From assembly GCA_032718475.1 (NCBI GenBank), contig JAUCBJ010007275.1:35666-99665 (forward strand): a stretch of DNA of 64,000 nt. The letters are read 5' to 3'. Each line of letters begins with the position of its first letter. Within the stretch, counting starts at the first letter, position 1. Below the pieces are notes generated by a model, which saw only the letters and a list, made by a program, of their open reading frames with translations, searched no databases and was not told the origin of the DNA. Made by a program: the position numbers and the translations under genes. The stretch comes from Nemertoderma westbladi (taxonomy: Eukaryota; Animalia; Xenacoelomorpha). Below are positions 14,860 to 52,620 of the stretch, piece by piece.

Positions 14860-15020
14860 ACCGGTACTGCTGTAGGTCCGTAGGCCCAACTGCCAGAAAC
14901 GGTACTGCTGTAGGTCCGTAGGCCCAACTGCTTGAACCGGTACTGCTGTAGGTCCGTAGGCCCAACTGCCAGAATCGGTACTGCTGTAGGTCTGCAGGCC
15001 CAACTGTCCTAACCGGTACT
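14860..15020 (+). repeat. ~38-bp tandem repeat in the element A leader
   Basis: ACCGGTACTGCTGTAGGTCCGTAGGCCCAACTGC repeated about four times; a single related unit in element B. Confidence 0.8.
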
Positions 15021-15204
15021 TCCAGTATAAGTACATTAGTATTATTCGATTTTGATTATTGTATACCGGTAGGTCTTAGTACTTAATCAGGGAACAGCCG
15101 CCCTGGTTTTTTATTGACATTTTACTTATTTCTGTCGGTTTTATTTACATGTAAGTTAATATTGAGCAGAAGACGTGTAAGTCTGCTCAGATTGTTCAGA
15201 TAAT

Positions 15205-15775: not shown

Positions 15776-17083
15776 GTTTATGCGATTATTCGAAACATTC
15801 ATGTCCCCAAGTTTATTCCTACAGTAATTGTGCTTGTTACACATACCGTTGTAGTTAAATTAACCCCGGTACTACACGGGCTGCTTGGCGTAGGTAAAGA
15901 CTGGTGACTTTGTGCTCCGGTCACTCCAGCAGATGCTGTGGTTCTTTTAACTGTTCAAGTATATTTAACTGCTAGTTATCTGTTTTTAATAAGTACTTGT
16001 ACCTAATTTAGGGTTTGGTGTACAGTGCTTTCCGAGAGTAATTAGTGTGTAGGCAGTGTATTGTGTTGTAAAGTGGTTAATAGGCACGTTGGATCTGGTA
16101 GTCCGCGGTAATTAACTTCCAGGTAGGAACACTCCGTGATACATAACGTAGTACCTATAGCGATACGGCTATAGGTCGTCAGACGGTGGTATTTTTCCTA
16201 TCTGGACAGCGCAACATATTTACTACTACTTATTATTTTCAAATACCATAGTACCCTGTCCGTTGTAATAACCAGAATTCTAACCCTTTGTTAGGCTGGT
16301 TTGTAGACTTCCTGTAAAATTACCCTAAAATTTCGTACGTAATATTTTTGTTGTGTTTAGTTAGAGAATTAATCTCACCCGTATCGTAAGTAATTCGTAG
16401 ATAAGTAACTTAGGAAGTAGAATTATCTGTTTTAGTGTCCAATAAGTAGCACTTCACTGAGAGCGCACAGCTTCTGTGTAGTGATTATTTCCCAGAAATA
16501 GTAACATCTATTTCAATATTGTAACAAAACCCCTCATACGGGTATATATATATATATATATTATATATTATATAATCAACTCAAACGATTTATAAATAGT
16601 AGGCCTGCCATACAACAACTAGGTCTCAATATCAGTTGGACTACTGCTTAAGTAACGGTAATAAAGTAAGTTAAAGTAACCAAGTAACCCTAAAATTTCA
16701 GAAATTCAATTATTCTAAAATAATTGACATACCGGTATTTACCATAGGCTTATTATATTTATTTCTATAAATTTGGGCTGAAATCATACCGGTATTCTGT
16801 AATTAATTCTAGTTCATAATTATACTTATATATACTATAAGTGTAAACTGCATACCGGTATTCACGATAGGCCTATTATATATTTATATATATATTTGTG
16901 CTAAAATTATATACCGGTATTCTGCGACAAACCTAGTCTACAATACTTATATATACTATAAGTGTATACCGGTATTCTAATATACTGTAATAAATTACCG
17001 GTACTAGGCCAACGGTCATACTGAATTACTAGACTTGCTTTAACTGTAACTATAGCAGTAAGCATTCAACTGTATAGCTAAGC

Positions 17084-25169: not shown

Positions 25170-26825
25170 TTCCTCAAACATCTAGGGACTCCCCAACGTG
25201 ATACGTCTGGAGTGGGTGCATGACTATATTATTCTATCTATTTTTATTATATTTTATATGCGAACGTTATTACAGTATGTACATTATTATAATCGTTTTA
25301 TTTAATTTTATTTAGTAGAATGTTATTTTAGATTATTTAGTAGGTTAGTGCAATATATTAGTGTTTATTACGTAATTACATATAATATATATTTAATATG
25401 ACGGCGAGAAATAATTCTTTCTTTTTCCTTACTGTCCGTATTATATTATAAATACGAGACTACAGTAAGATGACATGTCAGTACTTATTAAAGTACAATA
25501 AAGCTCCTACTATATTTAAGTATTATTGGTAGGCAGAGTATTAGGAATGCAAAGTTCAGATCCTCGTGTCTCGGCTAAACCAAGCTTTGGGTAGACCTTG
25601 GAAACGACTTGCCTCTTCACACTGACATTGCTTCGTGCGATATTGCTCTTCTACTTTATATTAAATAATACATATAGTAGCGTGATGTCCCTATAACAGT
25701 AGCGTAAAACGCAAATAAATCTGTTAAACCTTTTGACCATCTGTAATTTTAGTCGATTAAGATATCGCGGCACCCACCGATATACTTGAAAGACAAATTC
25801 TAGAATCAGTGGTTAACGTCCCCAGACAAGTTCTGGAATAAATCGGTGCCCATCTTAAATATTAATTTAATATTTATTAAAATCTGTAAAATTCAGATCC
25901 TTTAAAATTTCTAGTCAATTAAGATATCGCAGCGCTTACCGATACTCTTAAAAGACAATTTTATAGAATTAAGGATCCTAGGTCCCCAGACATGCTCTGG
26001 AATAAAATTGTGTCAATTTTACCATCAAATAATAAAATTCACGGGAATAAATTTAAATTCATATCTTAAATGAATTTCATAAATTGTCATTTCGTGCAAT
26101 TTATAACATTCCCAAAATTCCAGTAATTAATAGATCATGGGAGCGGAGATTCATCCTATTGAGCGTATTAGAGTGCGAGAATCTCCAACATATAGTCAAT
26201 AGCCGATAAAATTAATAATATCATGCATAAAGAGGATATTGACAATTAAAGAATTACTATTAAATAGCATTCCAGATCTGTATGCATGAGAATTACCCTA
26301 ATTCTACCGCTAGCTTTCCATAATGTCACCATAGCAACACCCACGCTAGAATTAGAAGCAAGTTAAAAGAACAATAGAAAGCTTGTCCCATTGCATAGCA
26401 TAGAGAATACATAGCACATGGTTAGTATCCAAGGATACACAGTAATAACGTGACATTCTGGAAGGCACTGACTAACGGACAAATGGCCTGTATGTGTACA
26501 ATTGGAGACAGTTTTGTGGAATTTGTGCGTTTATAGGTGAATGTTACTGCTAAAGTGTGTTTACAGTAGCTAGTCGCAATTGTGAAAGTAACCCTAACTC
26601 TAATATAGAAAGAACCTAAAGTGGATTCAAGCCTTTGGGACAGACAGTGGAGTGACTTGTGCCGGTTATCGTTGTCGTGCTGTTGCTACATGTTGGCGTA
26701 AACACCGCGACAACGGTACATCGGCGCTGAGAATCCCACTGTCCGGGGGCAAAGAAAGGTAGGCAGCGACGCTCGCTTGCCTAAACATAAACTCATTATA
26801 ATATTAATAAACCCAAATAGCAGAT

Positions 26826-28419
26826 ATGACGGAGTTGATAGAAGATGATCTTGGTATCAGGGAGCGATATACTCTACCTTTACAAGCATTTGTGGATAGC
26901 TTGATACGCGGTGAATCCGATCCAACCATTACGGAGGACGATGGTCGTTATATCGAACCGCCGATGTCCCAAGAGCAACTTACGCGTGAATTGGACTATC
27001 GAAAATTCACCGCTCGCTATACGCATCGTAATGGTATGTATATGGACTTCTTAACTACCGGCCATCTTATCGATTTACATGATACGGACGATGTAGACAC
27101 CGAAAGGGAAATGGTTCTATTTAAATATCATACCCAGCGGAGTCGTAACGATAAACCGAGAATAGTACACGAAAATTCTATTCGTAACAGACTGGAAAGA
27201 GAAAACGTTCAAGAACCGGATAAACGCATCGACTTCAGTGACTACCTGGAATTTTTGAGAGAAACCTATCTCAACATCGCCAGTCAGCAGAACCTAGAGA
27301 CTCGATATCCTCAAGGTATACATCATGACCCTATGGTAGAACTCAAACGGCTCTATTTCACTATGATGTATCTTACCGCCGATCGTCCACTACCTGTTAT
27401 CCCGGATAGTTTTGAACAAATGGAAGAATATTGCAAAACTGGAGAACGATCACCCGCGTTTCCTCTACAGGACGTACGTCTTTGGTATTATTGTGACGAA
27501 TGCCCTAGACCCAACCAACAAACTGAAAGACACAAACGTCCGCTGTTCCTATTTCCACGAACAACCGGCGATGGAAATTTATTGCGCATATTGCAGACTC
27601 CATAACTTGCATATTTTTGCGGTTTGCCCTCAATTTATGACTCAATGTCACCATTGTCAACTAAAGGGACACGCCAGTTTCGATTGCCCTTTTAATCACG
27701 ATTTGGAAAGCGTAGATGAAATGATCACACTACGTTACATCAGAGCTTGGGAAGCGAACGCTGATTTACATTGTGATTTGCGCCATCGCTATTATCCTGG
27801 ACGCGCTTACGAAGGAGTTTATGCGTTCCATCCTTATCTATTCGCTTCTGTCGAACAGAAATCACGCATATCGAGTTACGAACTACTGAAGCGCGTCGGA
27901 GAATGTATTTCAACCAAATTTGTACGCAAATTTCTCAGGAGTGTTAATCCTAGCGACCTTCATTCCTATAACTTAATCAATTTTATCCGTCAGGATCCGG
28001 ACTATGGAGACTTATTTGTTAACTCACACCCCGAGTTACAGGAAGTATATCGACGGCCTTACGAATACCGAGCCCGCGAACGCGAGTTGGAAAGAACCAT
28101 TAAACCCAGGAAGTTTCTGACTGCCTATGGTCCACCCACGGCTCTCGTTCAGACCACTCGTAAAGGACCCGTAAGAGCGGCCGTCCTAAAACGCGCTCTA
28201 AAGGCCGTTAGACCCCTCTCCCCCGACGTTGATGTCAACCAACCCGGCACTTCGACCGGCGGATACACCGACCATAATCCTACACCCTCTGATGCAATCA
28301 TATTGCACCCTTCACCCAGAAGTTATAGCCCTCCTTGTAAAGTGGCTCGCCCCAAAGAGAAAAAGACTCTGGCCAGCTTTAAAAAACTGCGTAAACGCCG
28401 TCCGCGCAAGAAAGACTAA
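26826..28419 (+). pseudogene. Element A ORF3, internally deleted (~2.1 kb lost near 27542)
   Basis: N-terminus matches B 46823-47541 and C-terminus matches B 50541-51389. The central exonuclease region is absent and the join is out of frame. Retains two CCHC knuckles (~27583-27687) and a KKLRKRRPRKKD tail. Confidence 0.85.
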
Positions 28420-28486
28420 CTGTTTAGAGTATTTACGTATATTAGAAACTGTGATTTTGTATATTTATAGACTTGAATCCCATTTT

Positions 28487-28496
28487 CTGGGAGTGG
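28487..28496 (+). other. Polypurine tract of element A
   Basis: CTGGGAGTGG directly before the 3' LTR TGTA; element B has CTGGGAGCGG at 51458-51467. Confidence 0.7.
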
Positions 28497-29671
28497 TGTA
28501 AAAGCTTTTGCGGATATAATCAGTCCCCTTGCCCGCAAAGTACCATGTGGGTGTTTTAACGGACATAAAAGTTGTTCTTCTATATGTGTGCTTTGGAGGA
28601 CATGGCAAGACACAAAACCCGCAATGCGTCAAATCCTCTAGCACAGTGTAGCCTTGATGATTCAGATTACGACATCTAACAGCTGGTTGCTGGCATGGAA
28701 ACGGCCGTTGGACACATGGTTCTTTGTTCAGCTTAACAGCCAATCAGAGCGATTTTTACTTTAGACGTGGAGATATTCTACAGATCGTACTAGGTGTGTT
28801 CAGTCTTACAGTGTTAGAGTTTTGTTGTTTCTATCTAGGCCAAGAACACCGGCTCTGGAGTAAAATTGTTTTCAGACTTTAGAAGAAACATTAGTAGGCT
28901 AAGATTATAGAGCGTATAACTGTTATCAGCGGTACAGTCTTACAGTACCAATCATATCATATCTTAACCTACCGTCTTAATGCTTTTACTGTTGTCATTA
29001 TTTGTATCAGTTGGTTGAATATTATTACTTGGAGAACATCGATAAATAACCCAAATTTCCCAATTTTCTTGATACACTACAGGTTAGAGAGACAGGTTAC
29101 ATATAGCGATTGCGACTTATATTATTGTGGTTTGTAGTGAATTTAATGCTATTTGATAAGCACTACATGAGTCAATTGCTGTTCTCTTTATGTATGATAA
29201 AATTCATTGACGGTCGGCAGATTAGTGTGCAGTATTGTGCGGTACCAGTAGTGTGCATGATTGTGGCTGATAACTAAGCATTTCCTAAAGAATGCGCCTC
29301 ATACGTGAATCATAAGCCTTACCGTCTCACCGTTGTGTTTAGTATAAGTCATATCTCTGTTTACCTAGATAGAGCGCCACGTCCTAAAGGAACTGTTAAT
29401 ATTTCCCGAAAGTGAATAATATTCGTCAGAAATTATTTACTAACGATCAATCGAATAATACAGTAAGCTTACACTGCAATAAAATCTAAGCACTCCGAAT
29501 CCAGTCTCCCGGGTATATCCAGCGGGTGAATGGACGCGCACTAGGCTGGCTTCGGCTAATGTTGTGTTTATTGGTATTAAATACTTGTCATATGTTAAAG
29601 TCTATTTATAAACCAAAAGACATATAAATTTTGGCAGGTTAAACTGCTAAAGGTCTTCAAAAGCGCGTACA
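28497..29671 (+). repeat. Element A 3' LTR
   Basis: Direct repeat of 13618-14792, followed by TSD GATTA. Confidence 0.97.
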
Positions 29672-33907: not shown

Positions 33908-35058
33908 TGTAAAAGCTTTTGCGGACATAACAAGTCATTTTTTCCCGCAATGCACAGTGTAGGTGCTTTAGCGGACATAACAAGTCATTTTTGCCGCAAT
34001 GCGCATAATACTCTAAAAGACTGGAGCTCAGATGACGAAATCTGTCAGCTGATTTCCTGTATACGTGGAACTTTTCTTTGTCCTGCCTAGTCAGCCAATC
34101 AGAGACGATTTTCACTTTATGTTGAACAGGGGCCTATGGAAAACCGCGCAATGCATTACGGTCTTTGTTTACTTTTCTGAGCCAGAGAACCGGCTTGGAA
34201 ATCTTCTGAACTTCTGATTTTGGAAGTTTCAGACTTTTGGCCTAAACATCTGATGGCTTTGATTACAAGAACGTAAATCTATTGTCTGGAAACATTACCT
34301 GGCTGCATTTACCTGATGAACTCAACATCCTGCATACATACTGACTTACGTAACACATACTGATTGTTCACCGCATTATTTTACTTCTGTTATTAATTGT
34401 TGTTATATGGATATATATTGCTGATATATTTGGATAATACCGATGAATAATCATAAAACCCCCAATCTTCTTGATTACTGAAGGTGAGAGGAACAGGTTA
34501 CCGGTAGCAACTGCGACTTAAATTATAGTGGTTTTGTGTGAATTAAATGCTATTTCATAATCCCTACAAGTGTCAGTTGCGATCTTCCTTATATATGATC
34601 AAATTCAGTGACGGTCGGCAGATCAGTGTGCAGTAGTGTGAAATAGTGTGAAGTCGTGTGAAGTAGTGTAACAGATAATAAAGCATCTCCTAAAGAATGC
34701 GCTATTTACGAAACTCAGTAGCCATCTAGTTGTAATTAGTATAAGTCATAACTCTGTTTTTATACTTAAAGCGCCACGTACTAAAGGAACTGTTAATATT
34801 TCCCCGAAAGTAAATATATTTGTCAGAGATTATATAGTAACGATCAATCGAATAATACATATAGGTCTGCACAGCAATAACTTTCAAAGCACCCGAATCC
34901 AGTCTCCCTTAACTGTGGGTGAATGATCGCGCACAGACTGGCTTCGGCGGATGTAACTTCAGTACATTAAATAATTGGTCTAGGCTAAAGTCGATTTACA
35001 AACAAGAAGACAACTAAAATTGGCAGGTTAAACTGCTAGAGGTCTAAAAGCGCGAACA
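33908..35058 (+). repeat. Element B 5' LTR
   Basis: TGTAAAAGC...CGCGAACA; about 98% identical to the 3' LTR by eye. Confidence 0.93.
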
Positions 35059-35069
35059 ATAATAGATTT
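35059..35069 (+). other. Non-tRNA primer-binding site of element B (ATAATAGATTT), complementary to LTR 34275-34285
   Basis: Pairs 11/11 (one G:U) with AAATCTATTGT at 34275-34285 and 51834-51844. Confidence 0.75.
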
Positions 35070-36948
35070 TTAAGTTCTTTATTGCACCATAGGCAATAAA
35101 GTCGAATGTACCGGTCGAACGGTAAGCTGTAAGCCTAACTGCCCAACTACCCGAACCGGTACTTACTGGTACCAGTATTATTTCGATTGTGACATATTGT
35201 ATATTGTAGGCTGTTAGGGGATTAGGGATTGATCACCCCTTATTCCTTTGTATGGTTTACTTATTTCTGTCAGTATTATTTATCTGTAAGTGTAATATTG
35301 AGCAGAAGGCGTGTAAGCCTGCTCAGATTGTATAAATAATTTGTAGGCCGGATTGTTGTCTGACTGTTGTTAGGTCCGAAGAGATTGCAGTATGTGTAGA
35401 GTGTCTGTCCGATAAAGTGCTAGTTAGGAAGGTGGGGGCATCCAGTGTTGTAAGGTAAATCCCCCCGAAAGAATAAGTCGTACTACTCGGTTAGAACGCC
35501 TACTAACTAACCATTTTGGAGTCTGCATATACTGTAGTTTATTTAGGCTTGACAGTAGTCTGCCAGCATTTGGTCTGTATTTTGTTTGTATAGTCTGCAC
35601 GGGTAGCGTAATATTTATTGTTCAGAGTATATGCGAGTATTCGCAACCTACAACCCCCCAAGTTTATTCCTACAGTAATTGTGCTTGTTATACATACCGT
35701 TATAGTTAAATTAACCCCGGTACTACATCAGGGCTGCTTGGCGTAGGTAAAGACTGGTGATTTTGTGCTCCGGTCACTCCAGCAGATACCGTGGTTCTTT
35801 TGGCTGTTCAAGTATATTTAACTGCTGGTTATTTGTTGTATAAGTACTTGTACCTAATTTAGGATTTAGAGTATAGTGCTTTCCGAAAGTAATTTTGTGT
35901 GTAGGCAGTATATTTGTGTTGTAAAGTGGTTAATAGGCATGTTAGCTCTGGTTGGCTGCGGTAATTAACTTCTAGGTAAGGACACTCCGGGTACATAACA
36001 TAGTACTTATAGAGCTAAGACTATAAGTCGTCAGACGGTGGTATTTTCTTATCTGGACAACGCAATTTACTTACTACTGCTTTATTGTTTTCAAATACCG
36101 TAGTATCCTGACAGTTTGTAAGAACCAGAAATTCTAACTCCTTGTTAGGCTGGTTTGTAGATTTCTTGTAAAATTACCCTAAAATTTGTATGTATAACTT
36201 TTTAGTGTTAATTTAGAGATTGTAATCTCAAACTGTAATAGTAAGTAATTTGTAGTGATAAGTAACTTAGTAAAGTAGAATTATTCGTTTTAGTGTCCAA
36301 CAAGTAGCACTTCACTGAGAGCGTTCAGCTTCTGTGCAGTGACTCCTCACCCAGAAATAATAACATTTATTTCAAACATAGTCCAACCCCTTGTACGGGT
36401 ATATATATATATTATAAATAAACTCAAACCGATTTATAAAATAGTAGGCCTGTTATACATCTATTAGGTCTTAATATCAGTTGGACTACTGCTTGATAAC
36501 AGTAATAAGTAAAGGGAAGTAACCCTAAAAATTCGGAAATTCAGTTATTATAAAATAATTGACATTACCGGTATTTACGGTAGGCTTATTATATATTTAT
36601 ATAAATTTGGGCTGAAATTATATACCGGTATTCTGTGACTAATCCTAGTCTATAATAATACTTATATATACTATAGGTGTATACCGGTATTTACGGTAGG
36701 CTTATTATATATATTTATATAAATTTAGGCTGAAATTATATACCGGTATTCTGTGACTAATCCTAGTCTATAATAATTCTTATATATATATACTATAAGT
36801 ATACCAGTATTTTAATATATTATATATATATCACGTTACACTGAGTAACGATATCGGTAATTAATTACTAGGCTTACAGTTGATACTGATTTACTAGACT
36901 TACTTTAACTGTCGTTATAGTAGTAGGCATTCAACTGCAATATAAATC

Positions 36949-39900
36949 ATGGCTGACACAAAGCAAACACTGTCAGATAGTCTCTTAGAAAGAACAGTCT
37001 GTGACTCAGATAGGAGTATAGAAAATCTGAGACCGAAGTCCAAGTCCCCTCTTACTGTAAGAAAGGTCATCCCTACAGTAGTAGTATCAGACCCTAGGTT
37101 AGTAAAGCACCATAGGTCTATTATAGGCACTAGGGCTCAGGTCAAGCGGGACCAAGAGGCAGCTGTTAAACAGCAGCAGCACCGGAACCGAGAACTTATT
37201 TCTCAACGGCCCGATAACTCTAGCAGTTCAGACACTGTAGAGTTGACACCCAAAATCGGAGCAAGGATGGCAGAAGCGGTTTATCCAGATCCACTTCTAA
37301 TACTTCCTGGAGCTGTACTCACTAGAGTATTGATTGCGGTGGAAGAACATCAAATTGATTGGGCGAGAAGTAAGCGATCGACCGAGGACAGTTATGCGGG
37401 ATACACGATGGAGGAATTAAGGTCTATTGTCGAGACGCAATGGAACTTCCCGGACCCGGACTCCCGTTTAACTTATCGGAAGTTGCTTGGGAGGACTAAT
37501 ACAGGATGGGAGTAGTAAGGGACACTCGAGATCCAGCTGTGTGGAAGAGGTCGGCAGCAGGATATGTCCAGGGATTCTTCGGCTCTTTGGAGCGGTTAGA
37601 GGAACACCTGTTTCAACAACGTCAAGGACCTCAAGAGCAGGGAGAGCTGCTTTATCAAGTGCGAGAACGAATTTTACGGATCAGACTAATTCTTTCAGCC
37701 TTTGAGGAAGCCTCGAAGAGAAGCCAAGACACGTCGTTGCAAGTTGCCGTAAAAATTTGGTTCCAACGGGCGAGTCTTAAAGTCCAAGGAACGACACAAT
37801 GGAAAATTCAGCTAACTGAGCGCGCGACCCACGGAGAATCAACAGACACTACCTTTTCTCAAGTGGAAGGCGAAACTACATCCGAAAAACCTCAGAAGAA
37901 GGATGCTATTGACATCTATCTGTCGGACTATCAACGATTCATAGGTGACAAAGAGCTAAGGAGAAGGCTAGCTGGACTTCACCCTAATAGTGAGGGGGCC
38001 AAATTTGTGTTGGACTCGTTAGATGCCGAAATATTAGCCGCTGAGCAGGCTAAATTTGATAAAAGCATCCTCATCGCTATGGAACAGGAAGAACAACTAA
38101 AGAAAAAACAGATAGAAGACAGAAAGGCAGTGGCAGTGGCAGAAGCTGAAAGAAAAGCGGCAGCGGCAGCAGCAGAAGCTGAAAGAAAAGCGGCAGCGGC
38201 AGCGGCAGAAGCTGAAAGAAAAGCGGCAGCGGCAGCGGCAGAAGTTGAAAGAAAGGCGGCAGAAGCTGAAAGAAAAGCGGCAGAGGCAGTGGTAGAAGCA
38301 GAATGGAGGGCATCTGAAGAGACAGCCCAACTAGAGTTGGAAAATCTTCAAGTGAAGCAAGATTACTTAAACAAACAGAGAACAGCTACTCAGATGCAGC
38401 TGCTAAGTCGATCTACTCCCAAGAGACAGGGATTTACATCCTCTGATGAAGGTGATACAACAGATCCTGAAGGTAGAGGAAATAAATCTCGTTCCAGCGG
38501 ACGTAGAAGGGCGTTGCACCGGCAGAAATTGCCTAATTTGCCTCCAGCTGTGAGAAGGCAACTAGCTAGTGTAGATTTAAGTAATCCTGCGCCTACAGAC
38601 CAAATTATTAGGGTAGAAAGACTCCCTACTATAGTAGATGAGCCTGAAATAATTAGGCCTGTTCTCGAAGCCACTCCCTCTGTGATAGAGACCCCTGTAC
38701 TTCCAGAACCTAACTCTAAATTCCCTTTGCACAGTACTAAACTACCTTTGCCCAGTAGAACAGCCCCTGAATCAATCAACGCCAAGCAAGACATCAACGA
38801 TTTGTCGCCCGTCGTCCCTCGTCTACCCGCTACTATGTTGGCGGCTCCCGCTTCGGCGGTAGAGTGGGTGGATGGGGGACGGCGGGGGACGGATCTCCTG
38901 CTCGGGCAGCTGGAGGAACATCGTATACGTTCCTCCCAACAGGTCCGAGAATTGGAAGGGACTGTTTAGCAGTTAAAGGGAACAGTAAGAGAGAGTAGGT
39001 TAGAATTGCAAGAAGTGCAGCAGAGTATCGCATTAGAACGCGATAAATTAGTAAATATACAAAGGGGTATACCACCACCTGTAACAATGTGTCAACCTAT
39101 TAGGTCTGAAGTATTTCATGCGCAAGGTGTGGAGCCTACATGCATCTATACTGCTAGTGAAGTAGAAACTCCTATAGTAGCCCCTATTAAGGGTAATTAT
39201 AAACCTGTTGATAATGATATTCCATACAGACCTGATCATAATCCGAGAAATTTATATACCGATAACTCGATATTAAATAATACAATGGCCCAAGAAAGTT
39301 TTACGCGTCAAATGGCTAGAACCGAAGCCCGTCAAGCGGTAAAGGTGGGAGAGATCGTCAAGTTCAATGGAGATGAGATGAAATGGTTACCTTTTAATGA
39401 GTATTATAAAGATAACATACAGAACTCTGTACTATCTTACGGAGAGAAACTTAGATTCCTCATCAAGTGCTTGGAAGGACCTCCCAAGTTAATGGCGTTA
39501 AAGTTTATTGGACATCCAGATGGATTAAGACAAGTTTGGCATACACTAAACATCAGGTATGGTAATAGGACTAACATAGCTAGGTATTTGTATGCGAAAT
39601 TAGTAGCGCCCCGAAAGTTCCTTAGCAGCGGGATTATAGAGTTTTCCGATGAGATTCAGGAGATCTGTAGACAACTAGATTGGTTAGGTAAGTCTCATGA
39701 ATATCAGAGTTCCATGGTTATTGGAGCCGTAGCCTCTACTTTGCCAAAGGGTGGAGTAGGTACTCGTTGGGACAAAAGAGTTCTCTATATGATGGACCAG
39801 CAACAAAGAGACCCTACCATGGCTGATCTCATGTCATTCTTAAATGGAGAGGTAAGATTACAGCTCCTAAAGCAGTCCCGAGAGAAGATACCGGAAAATG

Positions 39901-42900
39901 AGGTGAGTGAAAAACCTGTTTCTAGGAGAAAGGTAACACCAGTGTGTTATACAGACGACGGCGAAAGCCAGACCTCCCACGAGGAGAACAGCGGGAAAGA
40001 CACCGAAAGATCTTATTATGTCAACAAAACACGTAAAGACGTAAGTAAATCTAAGTCTCGAACCAGTGACAGGAGAGAACAGGTAACAACAACTCCTCCC
40101 ATGTCTCCTAAGAGAATTCATGGAAGAAAGCCCGAGGAAAGAACAAGTGTGCACAACACAACCCAGGTTAAAGTAAGTAACATCAAACCCAAATGTGCAT
40201 TGTGCGACGGGCCCCATTGTTTGAGTGGATGTGATGAATTCTTGAAGAAATCCCTAAAGGATAGACATGATGTCATGTGGGATAAGCGGTTGTGTTATAA
40301 TTGTCTCAGGCAAGGACACCAACGGCGGACCTGTTACTCAGACACGAAGTGCATTAAGTGCGGCGCGAAACATCATATCTTGCTGCACACAGAATTTGAT
40401 AGAACCCGCACGAGTCAGGTAAGTGAGTCCGAACTACATGTCCAATTCAGTGATGTGAACGACACTGACCACAGCTCTGAGATGGAAAGATTCTACACGG
40501 ACGAATTCTCCGACGAAAACGAATCCTGTTATATGATAAACGCCGCAGTGTATCGAGCGCTTACGTATGAGACTGAAACCGATAATGAAGCGCAACTGAC
40601 TATTCTGGACCGACAACCATCTTGGAAAGCGCCAACTTCCAACGTCGGAATCCGGGAATTCCCAGTGGTGCAGCTGAGAGTCCACAGGCTAAGTAAGAGT
40701 CTTATAGTAAACGCCCTCCTTGACTCCGGCAGCACAGGTACATTCATCGACAAAGAACTAGCCGAAGACATCTTTGCTGGACAACCCAAGTTCCGAACTA
40801 AGTTGAACCTTTCAGGAATTATGCAGGTTTGGAAATCTACAGTAGCTACAGATTACTATGTAGGCGCATTGTCCACTCCCCAGGACGAACTAGGAGAACA
40901 TAGCATAAGGTCAGTAAAAATGGTGGCGATAAAGAACTTTGCTACCAGCCAAGTGGAACCTTACAACTGGGACGAAGATCATTTTACCCAGCAGGCATGA
41001 TATCCCTAGATTCAACACCGACTACCCAGGGGTACAGATATTGATCGGCCAAAATGCGCACGAGGCGCTAGAGACATTAGAAAAACGGCCTGCTCGACCG
41101 CAACCATTACAAACGTACGCGGGAAGAACGAGAGTAGGTTGGTACTTCACTGGACCTTCCCGTAGAACACTGATGGAAGGACTCCCTCAAGAAAGAATAC
41201 ATCAGGTGAGTGAATGGGAAGAAGAAATCAGTGAGGGAGAAACCACAACTGAGGGAACACCATACTCCTCAGATAATGACGATATTAACCAATTATTCGA
41301 CGAGGAAAATACAATCGACCTCCTCACCGAAAATGAAACTTGGCGAAACCAAGTAAACCTGTGCCATCTCATCAATTATGGCGGACAATTCAACTACAAC
41401 GACGAATTAAACGAAGTGATAGATCACTACAACAATAAGATTCGCGATGAACACGCCGTACGATTCTTTACTCAAGAAGCAGTAGAGCCTAATTCCTACG
41501 ACAAGGCCCTGTCCGTCGAGGAAGAGAGAGCCAAGCAGATTCAGGAAACGACTACCCATTTTTATAAAGATCAAGGTCGCTATGAGATTGGTCTTCCGTT
41601 CCGACGGCGAGAACCCAACTTTATAAATAACCGACCCTTAGCGGAGAAGAGAATCGCGCAACTACATCGGCGTCTTATGGCCAATGTCTCAGCCAGGGAA
41701 ATGTATAAGACCCAGCTGAAGAAATTTATCGATAAGGGATACGCGGAGCGAGTACTGGAAGAAACACCCATCACAGAGAGAACGTATTATCTAACACATC
41801 ATTACGTTCCCAAACCCGGTAAACCCAACGAAGTCCGGGTAGTGTTCGACGGCACCGCCCTTTACATGGGCCAATCCCTGAACTCCGAATTGTAGCCTGG
41901 ACCCAACTTACTGCAATCCTTGTTGGGAATACTATTAAGATTACGGCAATATTCTCTCGCTTTCGCTTCGGATATAGAAGGCATGTTCTTACAAGTCAAG
42001 GCGCTGGATAGGGATCGAGACAGCCTACAATTTCTGTGGTGACCTGAAGGAGACCTCAACCAAAAACCGGTGGAGTACTGGATGACCATCCAGGCTTTCG
42101 GGATCATCTCGAGCCCCTCGAACGGTTGTTCAGTAGTGCGCACCACTGCTGATGACAACCGAGACGCCTCCTCTAAAGCGGTTATCGACAACATCAAACG
42201 GGATATATACATGGACGACAATTTAAAGTCCCTCCCATCGGCGGAAGAAGCCATTGATGTTGCCAAGGGAATGGTAGAGTGTTTGCGACGCGGTGGATTT
42301 CGACTAACCAAATTCACTAGTAACTCCCGTGAGTTTCTGGAATCAATCCTGGTAGAAGACCGAGGTGTTAAAGATCTGGACCTCATCAAGGACGATCTTC
42401 CGGAAACCAAGACGCTTGGTTTGAAATGGGACACGGAGAGAGATATCTTGTTTTTCCAGTTAAAACAGCGAGATAATCCAGTTAGAACTAAACGGATTTG
42501 TCTAAGTATCCTGAGCACTTATTTCGATCCATTGGGATTTATTAGCCCAGTTATATTGGTTGCTCGGAGCTTAGTGCAACAAATGTGGCGTGAAAACCAC
42601 TCGTGGGACGATCCACTTAAGGGAGAACTACTAAAGAAGTGGATGAAATTGGAAGATTCTCTACCTTCCATCGAGAACTTTATGATTTCCCATTCATATT
42701 TTGGTCACGTTCTCCCCACGTATTCCTATCAACTCCATGTGTTTGGAGACGCCAGCGATATGGGAATAGGTATAGTAGCCTACCTGAGGGTTGAAACTCT
42801 GGATGGAATTAAAGTTGCCTTGGTCACCTCTAAGGCCTTGATAAACAACAAACTACGAGTTCCTCGAGCGGAGTTAAAGGCGGCTCTATACGCTACAGCC

Positions 42901-45095
42901 ATCGGCCGGAATGTAACAGAACAGATCGACTATCCACTGGAGAAAACTGTCTATTGGACTGATGCTTTACTCGTTTTGGAGTATATAACCAATGAAGTCT
43001 GTCAGTTCAGTGCCTTCGTTACCAACAGAGTAGCCATTATACTTAGTCGCTCTAATGTAGATCAATGGAGACATTACCCTGGGACGATTAATCCAGCCGA
43101 CATCGCCTCCAGAGGAGCAACTCCTCAAGAACTGATAGATACTCCAGACTGGGTAGGTGGACCCGACTTCCTAAGTAAAGAAGAGGATGAATGGCCTCCT
43201 CATCTCACCACGGCTGAGATTAGACAAGCCAAGGGAGCGGAGAAAGTCAAACCTAAAACCCAGACGAGTAAATCAAAGTTATTTAAACCCGTGATAGATC
43301 TGTCTGTACTACACATCTCCAAGGACGACGCTGTGGATCTAAACTCCCCCGCCACAAATAAATCTGTTATAGACATCAGAGAAAGAGACTGGAAATCTGG
43401 AACACCAGACGTCTCGCAGGGACTCTCACATCTCCTGCAGAGAGCGATAAATCACTATAGCTCTTGGAATTGGCTTTGTAAGGCCGTCGTGTATTTGAAG
43501 CGATGCTTCCATCATCACTATTCCAGGACGAAGATCGCTAGTGATACCGCTCCACTGACATCCAAGCAGGTCCATGCTATAAAAAAACCTTCCCACATAC
43601 AAAGTGTCGGATAGGTTTCTGACGGAGAAGATCAGTTAACAGGAGCATGAAGAAACCAATAAGCAGATACTGAGACTCCTGCAATGCTATGAAGATTCCG
43701 ATAAGTATTTCCTGTTGTTGAGAAATCCACAGATGCGCTTAAGGGATCGTTTCTCTAGCACAATGATAGTTGGGTTAATACGTGTTGGAGGGAGACTAAC
43801 TAATGCTCCATTGTCCTTTGACACTAAATTTCCCATACTCATTAGAAATCTTGAAATACAAATCAAGATGATTGTAGATGTTCACAGTAGGCTTTACCAT
43901 GCTGGTAGAGAACAAGTTCTTAGCGAAATTCGAACTCGCTATTATTTCCATAAACCCCGTAGAGCTCTGAACCAAGTTCTTAGGAACTGTATAACCTGTA
44001 GGAAAGCATTCAGTAGGCCTTTAACACAGCGAGAGGCAGAATTACCTAGGGAACAAGTAAGCTTCTATGAACCACCCTTTACTAATACCGGTGTGGATTT
44101 ATTTGGCCCTATTGAAGTATATCGTGCTAGGACTATAGTCAAGTGATGGTGTGTCATCTTTGTCTGTATGACTTGTAGAGCGATCCATCTAGATATGGTG
44201 AACGATCTATCTACCAACAGCTTCATACTGAGTTTACGCCGACAGATCGCTCGTTTTGGAACTAGCAACACCATGAGATCAGACAAAGGAACGAACTTCA
44301 TTGGCGCCAATAATGAGATCAAAGCTTATGTTAAAGATTGGAACCAAAGACAGGTGGACGATCAGCTAAGGGTAACAGCATCTAGCTGGACCTTCAACGC
44401 CGCCAATGCCCCTTGGTGGGGAGGAAGTTGGGAGAGGTTAATAAGGAGCATGAAGACTGCATTTCACTTTATAGTGCCTTGCCGCGCGCGCGTATCTCAC
44501 CGATGAACTTTTGCGGACATTAATGGAAGAAATCGCCGCATATCTTAACGAGAGACCGCTTATGCCAGTCTCATCGAGTCCCGACTCCCTAGAAGCGCTA
44601 ACACCCACGCATTTCCTACTGAAGAAACCTGTAGCCATGCTCCCACAATCGGAAATCACGGACGGAGACGAATACTGCCGACAAACTTGGCAACTCATGC
44701 AGTTATTATCCCGTCGTTTCGACCATTTCGAAAAACTTTATCTGCCTACGCTACAACTTCGAACCAAGTGGTTTGTGCAGCAAGAAAACGTCAGCGCTGG
44801 AGACATGGTCCTTATTGTGGAATCAGATCTTCCACGTAAACGGTGGCAGACAGGTCGTATCATCGAGACTCATATATCCGATGATGGTTTAGTGCGATCG
44901 GTAGAACTCGTCATCATGCGATGTAACTTTAAGAAACCTGGAATTGTATTCGAAACACAGCAGCTCAATCGCCCAATTGGTCGTTTATGTTTACTGGAAA
45001 GAGACAGAGAGCTATCCGGAAACTATGGAAGGCAATATACTCTTCCCACGACCACTTCCCTAATCCAACAAACATCTAGGGACTCCCCAATGTAA
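36949..45095 (+). pseudogene. Element B gag-pol with multiple stops and frameshifts
   Basis: Collinear with A. Lesions near 37450, 38967, 40990, 41893, 42040, 43585, 43637, 44144 and 44485. Gag runs directly into protease in one frame (ORF 39006-41000). Confidence 0.95.
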
Positions 45096-47802
45096 CAGCG
45101 TACGGAGTGGGTGTGTGACTACATTATTGTATATTTGTTTTTATTATTTTTATATTTATGTATGTATTATTATGTAATTTTATTATAATCGTTTTCTTTA
45201 ATTTTATTTAGTAGAATGTTATTTTAGCGATTATTTAGTAGATTAGTGCAATATATATATTCGTGTTTATTACTTAATTACTTAACATTATATATTTAGT
45301 GCAATGGCGAGAAATAATTCTTTTTCTCTTTCCTTACTGTCCGTACCATATTATAAATACATGACTACAGTAAGATAAAATGCCAGTACTTATTAAAGTA
45401 CAATAAAGCTCCTACTATACTCAAGTATTATTGGAAAGTAGAGTATTAGGAATGCAAAGTTCAGATCCTCGTGTCTCGGCTAAACCAAGCTCTGGGTAGA
45501 CCTTGGAAACGACTTGCCTCTTCTCGCTGACATTGCTTCTTGTAATATTGCTCTCATACCGTATATTAAATAATACATATAGTAGAGTGATGTCCCTTTA
45601 ACAGTAGCGTAGAACGCAAAATAAATCTGTTAAACCCTTTGACCATCTGTAATTCTAGTCGATTAAGATATCGCGGCACCCACCGATATACTTGAAAGAC
45701 AAATTTCTAGAACCAGTGGTTAACATCCCCAGACAAGTTCTGGAATAAATCGGTGCCCATCTTAAATATTAAATATTTAATATTTATAAAAATCTATTAA
45801 ACAAATGTTATAATAGAGTAAATGCAGACAAATAAACTCTTAAGGAGTTTGTAAACCAAGAAAATCTATAAATCAAAATCTGTTAAAATTCAGATCCTTT
45901 AAAATTTTAGTCGATTAAGATATCGTAGCACTTACCGATACTCTTTAAAGACAAATTTCGTAGAATTAAGGATCCTAGTCCCCAGACATGTTCTGGAATA
46001 AAATTGTGTCTATTTTAATATTAAATAATAAAATTTACGGGAATAAATTTAAATTCATATCCTCTCATGAATTTGATAAATTGTCATTTTATACAATTTA
46101 TAACATTCCCAAAATTCCATTAATTAATAGATCATGGGAGTGGAGATTCACCCTATTAATTATATTAGTGTGCGAGAATCTCCAATATATAGTCAATAGC
46201 CGATAAAATTCATAAAATCATGTATAAAGGGGAATATTGACAATTAAAGAATTACTATTAAATAGCATCCCAGATCTGTATGCATGAGAATTGCCCTAAT
46301 TCTACTGCTAGCTTTCCATAATGTCACCATAGCAACAACCACGCTAGAATTAGAAGCAAGTTAAAGAACAATAGAAAGCTTGCCCCATTGAATAGCATAC
46401 GGAATAAATAGCACACTGCTAGTATCCAGGGATACATAATAATAACGTGGCATTCTGGAAGGCACTTGACTAATGGACAAATGGCCTGAATGTGTACAAT
46501 TTGTGACAGTTGTGTGGAATTTGTGCGTTTATAGGTGAATGTTACTTACTACTAAAGTGTGTTTACAGTAGCGTGTCGCAGTTGTGAAAGTTGCCCTACC
46601 TCTGTAGCAAGAACCTGAAGTAATTCTAAGACCTTGGGACGGACAGTGGAGGGACTCGCGCTGGTTATTGTTGTCGTTGTGTAGCTACTACATTGGCGAG
46701 AGGCACAGCGACGACAGTACATCAGCGCTGGGGATCTTGCGCTGTCCAGGGGCAGTGAGGGGGAGGCAGCGACGACCGCTAGTTATAATTAATTATAATA
46801 TTGATAAACTCATATAGCAGCTATGACTGAGTTGATAGAAGATGATCTTGGTATCAGGGAGCGATATACCCTACCATTGCAAGCGTTTGTTGATAGTTTA
46901 ATACGCGGCGACGCTAGTCAACCCACTACGGAGGACGATGGCCGTTATATCGAACCGCCAATGTCAAAGGAACAACTCACGCGTGAATTGGACTATAGAA
47001 AATTCACCGCTCGCTATACGCATCGTAATGGTACATAAATGGACTTCTTAACTACTGGCCATCCTATCGATTTACACGATACGGACGATGTAGACACCGA
47101 AAGGGAAATGATCCTATTTAAATATCATACCCAGCGGAGTCGGAACGATAAACTGAGAAACGAACACGAAAATTATATTCGAAACCAACTTGAAAGAGAA
47201 GACGTTGAAGAGCCGGATAAACGTAGTGACTTCAACGACTATTTGGAATTCTTGAGAGAAACATATCTCAATGTAGCCAGTCAACAAAACCTAGAAACTC
47301 GATATCCTCAAGGTATATACATCCTGACCCTATGATGGAACTCAAACGACTCTATTTCACTATGATGTATCTTACCGCCGATCGACCTCTACCTGTTGTA
47401 CCGGATAGCTTCGAACAGATGGAGGAATATTGTAAAACTGGAGAAAGATCACCCGCGTTTCCCCTACAAGACGTGCGTCTTTGGTATTATTGCGATGAAT
47501 GCCCTAGACCCAACCAACAAACGGAAAGACATAAACATCCGCGGAGACGTTGCGCTAAACACAGTTTTACTCGCTATACTTACGGGAGTTTCGAGCGAAA
47601 CTTGTTCGATGTATCACCTACGCTCGCTCGACTCAAACGATCCTTAAATAAACCTATGATCCGAGTTCCAGAATACTCGGTGAGGCCTCCTCACTCCCTG
47701 GTGAGACCTCAGACTCTTTATCCTAATAGTATCATGGATCCTCCCGAACTGTACTCACTGTTCAAAGATCTAGTGTTACCCGAACAACTAATCAGTGGCA
47801 CT

Positions 47803-48368
47803 TTTTCTAACAGTGAACTATAATTTTGTTAACCAAAATAACAAAAAAAAAATACCGGTATACTCTAGCCTATACTATACTATATTATAATCATAACCAA
47901 CCTGTAACAGTAAAATGACAGCAAGTGTGACAAGTTGTTCTATGAAATTCGATCTTGAAGCTGGTGATGTATACCTTCAAGCGGCAAATATAGTCGATAT
48001 TAGTAGGTCAGTCAGTCAGTTAGTCAGTATCGATAAATCTCTCTCATTACCGGTACCATTTATAAATTGGTTGCTGTTGCGGTTCCGGTTGCTGTTGTGG
48101 TTGTGAATGTGTCACAACAACATCATTATCATCATCTTCCCATGGGTTGTTTGCGGGTAACATTGGATTTGTTATACCATCCTCCCAATTTTCTTGAGAA
48201 ATTATACCGGTATCGCATGTATGAATTTCGCTATCGCCGCCCCGGGTTGAATTCTCACATTTAATGTGAAATTTTTCATTGTTTTAAAATCCGTTATTTC
48301 GTTTCCTCTTTTATTTTTAATTGCCATATGGAAATTTTATATGGAATTTGCCATCTTCAAGTTTCATA
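47803..48368. other. Foreign ~566-bp insert in element B ORF3, flanked by a diverged ~150-bp duplication
   Basis: The KPMIRVPEY...DLVLP coding block occurs at 47650-47802 and again at 48369-48522, around unrelated AT-rich DNA. Confidence 0.75.
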
Positions 48369-50121
48369 CAAACCTATGATCAGAGTTCCGGAATACACGG
48401 TCAGACCTCCTCATTCCCTGGTGAGACCTCAGACTCTTGATCTTAATAGTATGACAGATCCTCCTGAACTGTACTCATTGTTCAAAGATCTAGTGTTACC
48501 CAAACTATTAGTCGGTGGCACTCCGGTTGTGGGCTCTCTAGATATTTGCCCATCCTACCTAGCCGGATTGGGACGCGGACATCTAATATCGCCGTTCAAC
48601 CAGTATAATCATCCCAGTTTAACCCCGATACAACCTGTCACCGAGGTGGAGGAGAGCGTTGTACGAAACGCGTTAGACGCTATTCGGCAAAAGATCGGAA
48701 AAGGAACCTACGATTGTTTAGACAAACGTAAATTGCAACAACAAGTCCAAGCGGTAAAAGAATTAGCTTTACCTCAGTTCGATCGGGAAATCCAGAATCT
48801 CGAAGAAGATATCGAACTTGGACGAACCTACTCTCTGCAAGAGTTTTTGGACGAGTGCTTCCAACGACAAGTGGAGGAAAATCAGCTCGAGGAGAAGCAC
48901 ATCAAAATGGACGAGAGAGAAGAAGCAGCTTTAGCCCAGCCAGAAGCTCAAATCCTTATGACTGATCTCTATTCCAAAACCATTATTCATCCTTCGATGG
49001 TTCCCCATTTTGGAGACAAACTCTTCGCCACGGTACAACCCCAACCGGTTGATATCAATTTAAGATCTAGAGATCTTATCACTGATGCTCCTATGTTACA
49101 ACGTCCGCCAATCGAGGCCGCTCGTGTCGATGGTATACTCGTTGAACCTCCGGACAATCGAGCGGATCTTGTCCGTCGTATGGTACACGAGGTCAACCTA
49201 CGCGCTAGACCTTTACCGAACTCATTTTATGGAATCAAAGATCACCCCTATTATGTCAATTTAACTCAATATTATATGGTGAAACCGGAAGATCCTACAC
49301 ACAGTTTAAGGTTTCTACCACTGATAAACCCCCTAGATCTTGTTGAACTCGAACAACTACAGAAACATCTAGATCAATTGGTCAAAGTAAACTCATTCAG
49401 AAAACCTTATAATGTTTCAAGAATAGAAAAGGACATAATGCCTCCGTATAATCTCGATGGATTTATTAAAACTCGATTAGTCCATTGGAATCTCGACGTA
49501 TTATTCGAGGAAGAGCGAATACAGCAATATGGAGATGCAGAGACTTATACTACACATTATCTGAAGTATAGCGATCTACCTAACGCAAGCAAACGCGCCA
49601 CCTTATGGCATCCGGTGGGTATGACCATAAAAAACGCCACCAAAGAGTGGAACGAAACTCTTAACGTTATCGAAATGTATGGAGTTGTCACTTATGATAA
49701 CGAAGGTAGCGTTCCGATTAGAGAACTGGGAACTACGCGGATGATACACATACATGGATTAGCTGGTTCTACCCATGTGTTTACCCGAGCGTGTTCCGAC
49801 GTCATCGATTATTCTTTTGAGACTCTCACCGAGATCCAAAAGAAACTCCGACATGGACAATTCGAACTCGCGCAGCGCTACGTCACTGATACCGAGCGCA
49901 AACCGGCCATGGGTATAGATGGATCGATGTTACCCCAGCCAGTGCTCGAGATGTTGTTTAACGAAAGAATCCTTAAAATCGGCTCAGCTGTTTATGGAGA
50001 TCTCCAGAATGACTTCAGGAACATGGAGAATATCCCCTATCATTTCGTAGACACCCAGCTGATTGCTCCCTGGGCAGAAGGCCGAGATTTCTTCCGCACT
50101 ATGTATGCCAATACATCCAGA

Positions 50122-50270
50122 CTATATGGGCCAATCCCTTAATTCCGAATTGTTACCCGGACCCAACTTACTCCAATCCTTGTTGGGAATACTCTTAAGA
50201 TTAAGACAATATTCAATTGCTTTCGCCTCAGATATAGAAGGCATGTTCTTACAAGTCAAGGCGCTGGATA
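50122..50270 (+). other. 149-bp piece of the family's own RT gene inserted into ORF3
   Basis: YMGQSLNSELLPGPNLLQSLLGILLRLRQYSIAFASDIEGMFLQVKALD matches pol (~21970-22118; 41862-42010). Removing it restores the ORF3 frame (ANTSR|SAYINKV). Confidence 0.9.
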
Positions 50271-51467
50271 AGCGCATACATCAATAAAGTCCAACGAACC
50301 TCCATCGGACATCTTGCCTTTCAAGAATACGAATGGAATTTCAAAGTCGGAAACCCTATCAACTATCAACAAGTATAAGAAGATCATTATTCTCGATTAT
50401 ACTTCGACGGACCATTGACTGCACCTGGCGTCGTTTATAGCTTCATGAGTGTTCCACTTCGTCCCTCATTAGCTATATACACTATCTTCGAGAACGCCGC
50501 ACTTGCCGGTTGGCTAGCCGATGTGTGCAGTACACCTACAATGGAGATCTATTGTGCGTATTGTAGACTCAATAACTTACACATCTTCGCAGTCTGCCCT
50601 CAATTTATGACTCAATGCCATCATTGCCAGTTTAAAGGACACGCAAGTTTTGATTGCCCTTTCAACCGAGATCTGGAAAGCGTAGATGAAATGGTTGCCC
50701 TGCACTACATTCGAACCTGGGAAGCTAACGCGGATCTCCATTGCGAGTCACGTCATCGATACTACCCTGGATGTGCCTATGAAGGAGTTTATGCGTTTCA
50801 CCCGTATCTCTTTGATTCCATTGAGCAAAAATCTCGCACACCGAGTTACGAACTAATGAAGCGTGTTGGCGAGAATATTTCAACCAAATTTGTTCGCAAG
50901 TATCTCAGGAACATTAATCCTAATGATCTTAATTCCTATAACTTGATCAACTTCATCCGCCAAGATCCGAAATATGGTGACTTGTTCATCAACTCGCATC
51001 CAGAACTAGAGGAAGTTCATAGACGACCCTATGAATATAGAGCCCGAGAAAGCGAGTTAGAAAGAACCATCAAACCGAGGAAATTTCTCACTACTCACGG
51101 TCCGCCTACCGCTCTCGTGCAGACGACTCGTCAGGGACCAGTAAGAGCTGCTGTCTTGAAACGCGCTCTGAAGGTTGTTCGACCTTGTTCCACTGAGGTT
51201 GATATCGATCAACCGGGTACCTCGACCGGCGGATACACCGACCGTAACCCTAAACCTTCCGATGCAATTGTATTGCACCCCTCACCCAGGAGTTATAGCC
51301 CTCCTAGTAAAGTGGCTCGCCCCAAAGAGAAAAGGACTCTTGCTAGCCTCAAAAAACTTCATAAACGCCATTCACGTAAGAAGGACTAACTGTTTAGAGT
51401 ATTTTTATATTTTAGAAACTGTGATTTTTTATATTTTATAGAATTAAATCCCATTTTCTGGGAGCGG

Positions 51468-52620
51468 TATAAAAGCTTTTGCGGACATAACAAGTCATTT
51501 TTTCCCGCAATGCACAGTGTAGGTGCTTTAGCGGACATAACAAGTCATTTTTGCCGCAATGCGTATAATACTCTAAAAGACTGGAGCTCAGATGACGAAA
51601 TCTGTCAGCTGATTTCCTGTATACATGGAACTTTTCTTTGTCCTGCCTAGTCAGCCAATCAGAGCGATTTTCACTTTATGTTGAACAGGGGCCTATAGAA
51701 AACCGCGCGATGCATTACGGTCTTTGTTTACCTTTCTGAGCCAGAGAACCGGCTTGGAAATCTTCTGAACTTCTGATTTTGGAAGTTTCAGACTTTTGGC
51801 CTAAACATCTGATGGCTTTGATTACAAGAACGTAAATCTATTGTCTGGAAACATTACCTGGTTGCATTTACCTGATGAACTCAACATCCTGCATACATAC
51901 TGACTTACATAACACATGCTGATTGTTCACCGCATTATTTTACTTCTGTTATTAATTGTTGTTATATGGATATATATTGCTGATATATTTGGATAATACC
52001 GATGAATAATCATAAAACCCCCAATCTTCTTGATTACTGAAGGTGAGAGGAACAGGTTACCGGTAGCAACTGCGACTTAAATTATAGTGGTTTTGTGTGA
52101 ATTAAATGCTATTTCATAATCCCTACAAGTGTCAGTTGCGATCTTCCTTATATATGATCAAATTCAGTGGCGGTCGGCAGATCAGTGTGCAGTAGGCGTG
52201 AAGTAGTGTGAAGTCGTGTGAAGTAGTGTAACAGATAATAAAGCATCTCCTAAAGAATGCGCTATTTACGAAACTCAGTAGCCATCTAGTTGTGATTAGT
52301 ATAAGTCATAACTCTGTTTTTATACTTAAAGCGCGACGTACTAAAGGAACTGTTAATATTTCCCCGAAAGTAAATATATTTGTCAGAGATTATATAGTAA
52401 CAATCAATCGAATAATACATACTGTATACAGTAGGTCTGCACAGCAATAACTTTCAAAGCACCCGAATCCAGTCTCCCTTAACTGTGGGTGAAAGATCGC
52501 GCACAGACTGGCTTCGGCGGATGTAACTTCAGTACATTAAATAATAGGTCTAGGCTAAAGTCGATTTATAAACAAGAAGACAACTAAAATTGGCAGGTTA
52601 AACTGCTAAAGGTCTAAAAG
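51468..52620 (+). repeat. Element B 3' LTR
   Basis: Direct repeat of 33908-35050. First TG mutated to TA. 10-bp insert at 52422-52431. Confidence 0.93.

Follow-up and report, generated by a model that had tools for sequence, protein, structure and literature searches.

The third open reading frame (ORF3) of a BEL/Pao-type retrotransposon in the animal Nemertoderma westbladi (Xenacoelomorpha) is, judged from the pattern of change in its codons, a selected, conserved gene. The retrotransposon, element B (33908 to ~52620), and its relative, element A (13618-29671), are two related long terminal repeat (LTR) elements in an animal-like stretch of 64,000 nucleotides on contig JAUCBJ010007275.1 (assembly GCA_032718475.1, positions 35,666 to 99,665), which we call the window and from whose first letter all positions are counted (Table 1). 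ORF3 stands at the position of an envelope (env) gene. It encodes a protein with zinc knuckles and a domain for which a DEDD-type fold is plausible and, in our judgement, probable. Our tentative proposal for this conserved non-envelope accessory gene is that its RNase D-like domain and knuckles trim 3′ ends of the element's RNA, most likely that of a primer drawn from the element's own LTR.

ORF3 of element B is placed between the integrase and the 3′ LTR, beginning 1.7 kb past pol and stopping 80 bases short of the LTR. A sequence-only reading had described here, after repair of lesions, a protein of about 1200 residues with neither signal peptide nor transmembrane (TM) helix, and this description holds: the coding pieces sum to the length given in Table 1, and the motifs it quoted are all found in place and in order, starting at 47491 (CDEC), 49684 (VVTYDNEG), 49975 (KIGSAVYGD), 50044 (FVDTQ), 50301 (SIGHLA), 50436 (YSFMS), 50553 (CAYC) and 50616 (CHHC). 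An env product can be ruled out because no 19-residue window in the six stop-free pieces exceeds a hydropathy of 1.42, leaving no hydrophobic segment. Neither a TM anchor nor a signal peptide, the marks of an envelope glycoprotein, was seen by hydropathy and from the N-terminus, which reads as acidic, no dedicated predictor having been used. The N-terminal Cys/His cluster has no match in Pfam, PHROG or NCBIfam. The two knuckles, whose Cys and His residues are all retained in copy A, match Pfam zf-CCHC_3 below its cut-off (E 0.015), and the C-terminal tail contains a basic run at 51351-51383. Just upstream of the start codon, a TAG-CAG lying in sequence of 76-78% identity between A and B is a possible splice acceptor for a subgenomic mRNA.

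Selection on ORF3 is visible in the parts that were compared between copies. Between A and B, the shared ends of the gene give a dN/dS of 0.095 over 237 codons (90% identity) and of 0.05 over 282 codons (84% identity; dS is near saturation here, and pN/pS is 0.11), compared with 0.11 in pol and 0.19-0.22 in gag. The earlier claim that the conserved termini imply selection is thus confirmed, with purifying selection at a dN/dS of 0.05-0.10. As support for a nuclease, the same conservation fails: ORF3 of copy A (26826-28419) has neither the middle nor the exonuclease-like domain, B 47543-50540 being wholly missing from it, and we discarded the A-versus-B comparison for this purpose. Because A lacks that part, the case for selection on the domain itself rests on variants in other copies, compared in four DNA runs over 50360-50500. 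The 17 listed variant rows all lie within 50402-50468, and 16 of them are third-position and synonymous, for an expected share of 0.29; this would correspond to P ~3e-8 if the rows were independent, which they are not, and the count spans only 23 codons, outside ExoI and ExoII.

The same four runs, which represent at most three samples and three studies and one of which is possibly the source of the window, tell us what a family copy of ORF3 looks like. They contain 24,152, 18,452, 9,020 and 370 ORF3-family contigs, covering 30, 30, 30 and 28 of 30 bins, respectively, and the retrotransposon family is therefore very abundant. Copy B is broken at five places. Across one of these, a piece of pol lodged in the exonuclease-like domain (93% identical to A's pol at 21972-22117 and 90% to B's own at 41863-42010), contigs join in all four runs, with short joint sides of 21-29 letters; across another, an AT-rich insert with thin coverage of its bins in three runs and none in the fourth, one contig bridges. 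Since contigs of other copies cover ORF3 and span both inserts, the exonuclease-like part belongs to the ORF3 of the family and the inserts are lesions of copy B; their reading as normal parts of the gene was dropped. Other copies in three runs also show internal ORF3 deletions, with joints at 46850-47060 and 48903-51037, so ORF3-defective copies have spread.

What kind of domain ORF3 contains was approached by several routes, a number of which lead to the same superfamily. In the ESM Atlas, a language-model feature search, clusters of PF01612 came first (score 0.86, with 108 shared features), and the best family matches agreed in ten of ten cases. RNase D was the first of 18,950 NCBIfam models (E 0.088), and an exonuclease was the second match among PHROGs (E 0.13). 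E. coli RNase D itself aligns without gaps over 43 residues, placing Asp 49999 on Asp85, which we take to be catalytic. Four profiles were also built from bacterial PF01612 loci (69 sequences). The one from 29 loci, 25 of them RNase D-sized, gave the 5′ part 10.3 bits and the X-joined read-through 9.4 bits, compared with at most 4.0 bits among its controls (1,000 shuffles plus the reversed sequence), and it ranked ORF3 first among 238 frames of the window (E 0.032). With hhalign, this RNase D-type profile scored 29.2, compared with at most 19.5 in 60 shuffles. Within this exclusively bacterial set, the best match is thus RNase D and not the stand-alone 3′-5′ exonucleases. These leads are concordant but weak, and most derive from one 45-residue patch.

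Testing each motif block against 1,000 shuffles locates that patch. The ExoII block, which supplies the ExoII Asp, is equalled by two shuffles with both profiles and the DTQ block by 2-30, while the helix after DTQ is equalled by 71-319. The earlier motif assignment therefore stands for ExoII and DTQ, which exceed chance, and not for ExoI and ExoIII, which do not. Three candidate acids are nevertheless found where they would be expected, in a domain that is otherwise unrecognisable.

A considerable body of results weighs against the exonuclease assignment. No Pfam family matches the candidate domain at E up to 10, PF01612 included, so the Pfam check proposed beforehand came out negative; the best PDB match (E 0.31) is unrelated; and HMMER, run over 1.84 billion representative proteins, returned no relative at E<=0.001. 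By the Atlas's own rule, a score below 0.9 with 108 shared features counts as a lead only. The NCBIfam match reaches 12 bits where the family cut-off is 299, the hhalign probability is 27%, and only one of the four profiles exceeded its controls, RNase D having already been singled out by NCBIfam. At the level of motifs, the ExoI block is equalled by 200-520 of 1,000 shuffles (520 with the RNase D profile) and the ExoIII block by 176-677, and the Y-x3-D of ExoIII was not found, the acid position being occupied by Ser or Glu and never by Asp.

Further searches add little. The other three profiles stayed within their controls at -1.1 to 3.0 bits (-1.1 and 2.8 for the two of stand-alone bacterial 3′-5′ exonucleases), with hhalign probabilities of 0.4-4.5%, and neither the PF01612 nor the TIGR01388 cut-off was reached. 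Two AlphaFold models of the domain are of low confidence (pLDDT 30.8 and 33.9). Word-indexed protein searches returned nothing for residues 440-620 or the 154-residue domain; nor did one with the 625-residue frame against longer proteins, for which words came from the first 500 residues and most of the exonuclease part lay outside. The middle region of ORF3 gave nothing in the ESM Atlas, phage records gave nothing relevant (best E 4-9), and metagenome and viral contigs searched with the domain, integrase or knuckle region contained no related element. There was no Rfam or ARAGORN match.

Such a record invites the view that the exonuclease likeness is a chance or vestigial patch of 45 residues and that ORF3 encodes an accessory protein which is under selection, binds zinc, has another fold and probably also binds RNA. 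All library searches were blank or under cut-off, only the ExoII/DTQ patch is significant, and ~30 extra residues separate ExoI from ExoII relative to RNase D, all of which this view would accommodate. It would have to treat as coincidence that feature search, NCBIfam, PHROGs and profile tests agree on one superfamily, and that the best placements follow the correct order, at YDNEG for the RNase D ExoI block and at 50400 for both ExoIII blocks, even though the pooled profile places ExoI elsewhere. We consider it rather unlikely. The earlier designation 'DEDDy-like' can thus be kept as a description resting on several weak, concordant leads (Atlas, NCBIfam, PHROGs, profiles and blocks), with no decisive match behind it. 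Because Y-x3-D is absent, we refrain from assigning the protein to the DEDDy family.

The fourth acid bears directly on function. The sequence-only reading had reported the last catalytic Asp as missing from YSFMS; it is correct that no Asp is available, but YSFMS is just one of two equally scoring registers, and the other had been missed. This second register is a further PL-x6-Y motif (YTIFE) with Glu at +4. Three profiles leave the two tied, at -16.2/-15.8, -22.3/-23.3 and -15.5/-13.9, and neither beats shuffles (pooled 934 of 2,000). The domain may hence be either an active D-E-D-E form or a dead D-E-D-S one, and the argument that a missing Asp proves a dead enzyme was abandoned once the second register tied.

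ORF3 could also be an adaptor, i.e. a DEDD-fold protein with an RNA-binding surface and no nuclease activity that exports or transports the genomic RNA, much as Egalitarian, EXD1 and CERV suggest. In the first register, Ser stands in place of the fourth acid; no non-synonymous variant is listed at 50436-50450 among the copies, so this Ser is not a private lesion of copy B, and the knuckles, basic tail and possible splice acceptor all fit an RNA adaptor. There is also precedent in published sources: Egalitarian binds localisation stem-loops, including that of the I factor, without needing its catalytic residues, and Exd1 is inactive (bioRxiv 10.1101/2025.08.03.668247), while CERV is a spliced nuclear export factor that exports Cer1 RNA (PMC10309623). 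The three candidate acids kept in an otherwise unrecognisable domain, to which the second register adds a fourth, are harder to explain under such a role, and the other 900 residues of ORF3 resemble no adaptor domain in the protein search or the Atlas. On balance, we regard the adaptor role as doubtful.

For an exonuclease, a substrate suggests itself at the other end of the element. No TGG, as expected of a tRNA-type primer-binding site (PBS), occurs within 60 nt after either 5′ LTR. Instead, the 11 bases of the PBS can pair with a stretch of the same element's LTR some 750-780 nt upstream. All 11 of 11 positions pair in both copies, in B as ten Watson-Crick pairs and one G-U, and 34275-34285 is homologous to A's 14037-14047. 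From A to B, seven pairs are unchanged, three have changed on both sides, one is now G-U and none is broken. A pairing as good occurs in 0 and 7 of 1,000 shuffles of the LTR and, among 600 other 11-mers of the leader, in 3 and 1. Because the PBS pairs with the own LTR through three compensatory changes and no tRNA site is present, we predict Tf1-like self-priming for A and B, from two copies only. Just past the primer site, a 9-bp hairpin (~14807-14830 and 35077-35101) is conserved between A and B except in its loop and is followed by a second short hairpin; these are a possible packaging or priming element.

The self-priming prediction makes trimming of the primer end the leading mechanism, and it lends circumstantial support to the primer-maturation role suggested earlier; the link between ORF3 and primer is their co-occurrence in one family only. 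The other two roles suggested earlier, anti-silencing and proofreading, drew no support from the present data, and nothing spoke against proofreading either. In the scheme we favour, the ORF3 protein would be made from a spliced subgenomic RNA, and its knuckles and basic tail would bind the element's RNA. Its domain would adopt a DEDD-type fold, with Glu 50490 serving as the fourth acid. The front of the transcript would pair with the PBS and then be cut in the loop, after which the exonuclease would trim the single-stranded overhang to the eleventh paired base and reverse transcriptase (RT) would extend from there. Since the domain is missing from A, the frame is broken in B and deletions in ORF3 occur in further copies, the protein would be expected to work in trans, with copies bearing a broken ORF3 still able to move. 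The fully specified form of this proposal, in which a self-priming BEL/Pao element makes an exonuclease for maturing its own primer, a knuckle-bearing D-E-D-E variant of DEDDy that trims to the 11-bp duplex, must be called unlikely as a whole.

Two points from Tf1 count against a dedicated primer exonuclease. We know of no exonuclease gene in Tf1. Moreover, Tf1 primer cleavage needs the RNase H of the RT, according to the title of Levin 1996 as cited in PMC4600332. On the other side, DEDDy enzymes do process the 3′ ends of structured RNAs (PMC5408684).

A different substrate would be the small RNAs of the host, whose piRNA or siRNA 3′ ends ORF3, as an exonuclease or a decoy of one, might degrade or mis-trim, thereby weakening silencing. 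Host DEDD-fold proteins act in small-RNA pathways (PMC5408684), and the great abundance of the family (9,020-24,152 variant contigs in three runs) would be in keeping with such a role. Neither profile of stand-alone bacterial 3′-5′ exonucleases gave a signal, however, and the DEDDy ORF3s of bdelloid rotifers show no clear tie to copy number in the available text of PMC5408684. We therefore deem such an antagonist improbable.

Table 1. Features of elements A and B discussed in the text (window positions)
Feature	Position	Strand	Remarks
ORF3	46823..51389	+	~1,226 codons; broken in copy B; soluble, outside known families
TAG-CAG just 5′ of ORF3 ATG	46815..46825	+	retained in A and B
N-terminal Cys/His cluster, C-x2-C...H-x-H...C-x2-H	47491..47562	+	possible zinc site; from sequence
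Candidate ExoI (Asp 49696, Glu 49702)	49684..49707	+	best placement of RNase D ExoI block
ExoII and DTQ region	49933..50067	+	ungapped RNase D match (Asp 49999 on RNase D Asp85)
ExoIII, register 1	50400..50450	+	Tyr 50436, Ser in acid position (50448)
ExoIII, register 2	50442..50528	+	Tyr 50478, Glu in acid position (50490); no proline up to knuckles
Two CCHC-type zinc knuckles	50553..50657	+	C-x2-C-x5-H-x4-C; C-x2-C-x4-H-x4-C
Basic C-terminal tail	51297..51386	+	12 K/R in last 30 residues; retained in A
Stop	47036		copy B lesion
Frameshift	near 47315		copy B lesion
153-bp duplication around AT-rich insert	47650-47802 / 48370-48522		copy B lesion
AT-rich insert between the two 153-bp copies	47803..48369	.	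copy B lesion; unique in window
146-bp pol piece (RT region) inside exonuclease-like domain	50123..50268	+	copy B lesion
Stop	50376		copy B lesion
5′ LTR of element B, TG...CA	33908..35058	+	18 mismatches to 3′ LTR
LTR segment complementary to PBS, predicted self-primer	34275..34285	+	element B; same letters in 3′ LTR at 51834-51844
11-nt PBS without tRNA-type TGG	35059..35069	+	element B
gag-pol of element B	36946..45095	+	BEL/Pao gag, protease, RT, RNase H, integrase; frameshift-broken; Pfam
3′ LTR of element B	51468..52620	+	short purine tract 51460-51467 just before
Sister element A	13618..29671	+	open pol frame; LTRs 99.1% identical; 5-bp target duplication
Self-primer pair of copy A	14037-14047 with 14793-14803

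The carriers themselves are conventional. Elements A and B are assigned to the BEL/Pao LTR retrotransposons because their gag-pol matches the Pfam families DUF1759, Peptidase_A17, Integrase_H2C2 and DUF5641 (in B with E 4e-11, 2e-35, 3e-8 and 7e-19, respectively); a Pao-type gag is followed by pol in the order protease, RT, RNase H and integrase. PF05380 is the Bel/Pao RNase H (PMC3985635). The TG...CA ends and the target-site duplication are clear for A, and the ends of B's 3′ LTR are altered. Differences within the LTR pairs are few (11 of 1,175 bases in A and 18 of 1,140 aligned bases in B), so both elements are young.

Several other features of the elements and of the window were recorded along the way. 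The 1.7-kb spacer between pol and ORF3 contains a 165-bp unit in tandem duplicate (45623-45786 and 45876-46037), also present in A. Parts of this spacer are 91-97% identical between A and B, and because this is well over the identity at synonymous sites, it suggests a cis-acting element. The long N-terminal extension of gag holds an Ala-rich repeat of variable length (18250-18442 and 38126-38291). By eye and from the list of open reading frames, a third, degraded element lies at ~58000-61300 on the minus strand, with fragments of a BEL/Pao-like gag, protease, RT and RNase H. On the same strand is also an open RNase H-integrase frame of 698 codons (61598-63694), of Gypsy type by eye and flanked by a 92% identical repeat (61460-61624 and 63826-64000). 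At the opposite end of the window, positions 2-787 of the minus strand form a host-like coding stretch with leucine-rich repeats that presumably resembles STK11-interacting protein in its N-terminal part. The list is completed, at 7686-8865 (minus strand) and 11551-12184, by what look by eye like pieces of a non-LTR reverse transcriptase and by an array of 68-bp tandem repeats, inverted copies of which are dispersed.

How does this ORF3 relate to systems already described? Other BEL/Pao elements also have a third open reading frame between pol and the 3′ LTR, namely the env genes of roo (F-like) and of mosquito elements (gB-like), but these encode membrane glycoproteins (PMC13524379), whereas the present protein has no hydrophobic segment. 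Self-primed reverse transcription is known from Tf1, Tj1 and sushi, from Tcn1 of plants and from TAR, which share with A and B the absent tRNA site and a PBS complementary to the own LTR (PMC4600332, PMC6317226). The published self-primers named in the available text of these sources belong to Ty3/gypsy and Ty1/copia (PMC4600332, PMC6317226), as opposed to the BEL/Pao affiliation, the ~750-780-nt spacing and the exonuclease-like ORF3 found here; no title on self-priming BEL/Pao elements was found in the literature searched.

The resemblance to RNase D and PF01612 consists of an ungapped match of 43-49 residues over ExoII and DTQ, with a candidate D-x-E upstream and the PL-x6-Y spacing downstream. 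ORF3 differs in lying far under the cut-offs, in its missing Y-x3-D, in the extra residues between ExoI and ExoII, and in being followed by knuckles instead of the HRDC domains that succeed the exonuclease domain in RNase D. A DEDDy domain is also mobile in the Dada elements of Laccaria and Ectocarpus, with a proposed role in 3′-end processing (PMC3706591). Dada elements, though, are DNA transposons, with the domain inside the transposase and all four acids kept (PMC3706591), unlike in ORF3. Should the ORF3 domain be a dead nuclease, the protein would be a transposon-made analogue of Egalitarian or EXD1; active or dead, it would remain a protein without detectable relative among 1.84 billion.

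The closest parallel comes from the retrotransposons Juno and Vesta of bdelloid rotifers, which are Ty3/Gypsy-like. The present ORF3 differs from theirs in its length of ~1,230 residues and in its knuckles and basic tail. DEDDy-type ORF3s have been published for both, and are shared with Athena/Terminon elements (PMC5408684; review PMC5718144). Like ours, they are RNase D-like, stand at the env position and lack a TM domain, activity not having been demonstrated in the available description (PMC5408684). The carriers are dUTPase-coding lineages, not BEL/Pao (PMC5408684), and the literature searched, which excluded Repbase and most subscription journals, yielded no DEDDy ORF3 in BEL/Pao. The Juno and Vesta tetrad is an intact DEED (PMC5408684), whereas here the ExoII residue is Asp and the fourth position holds Ser or Glu, so that no DEED is formed. 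Furthermore, the rotifer frames show no departure from neutrality within the genome in the available sections (PMC5408684), as against the strong selection on this ORF3. Since that description, which showed neither activity nor selection, it has been an open question what exonuclease-like ORF3s do in retrotransposons. The family described here would extend the arrangement to BEL/Pao, under strong selection, and its predicted 11-bp self-primer duplex is a defined candidate substrate that makes the function of ORF3 directly testable; if primer maturation proves to be its task, a DEDDy ORF3 carried by a retrotransposon would for the first time have a concrete substrate.

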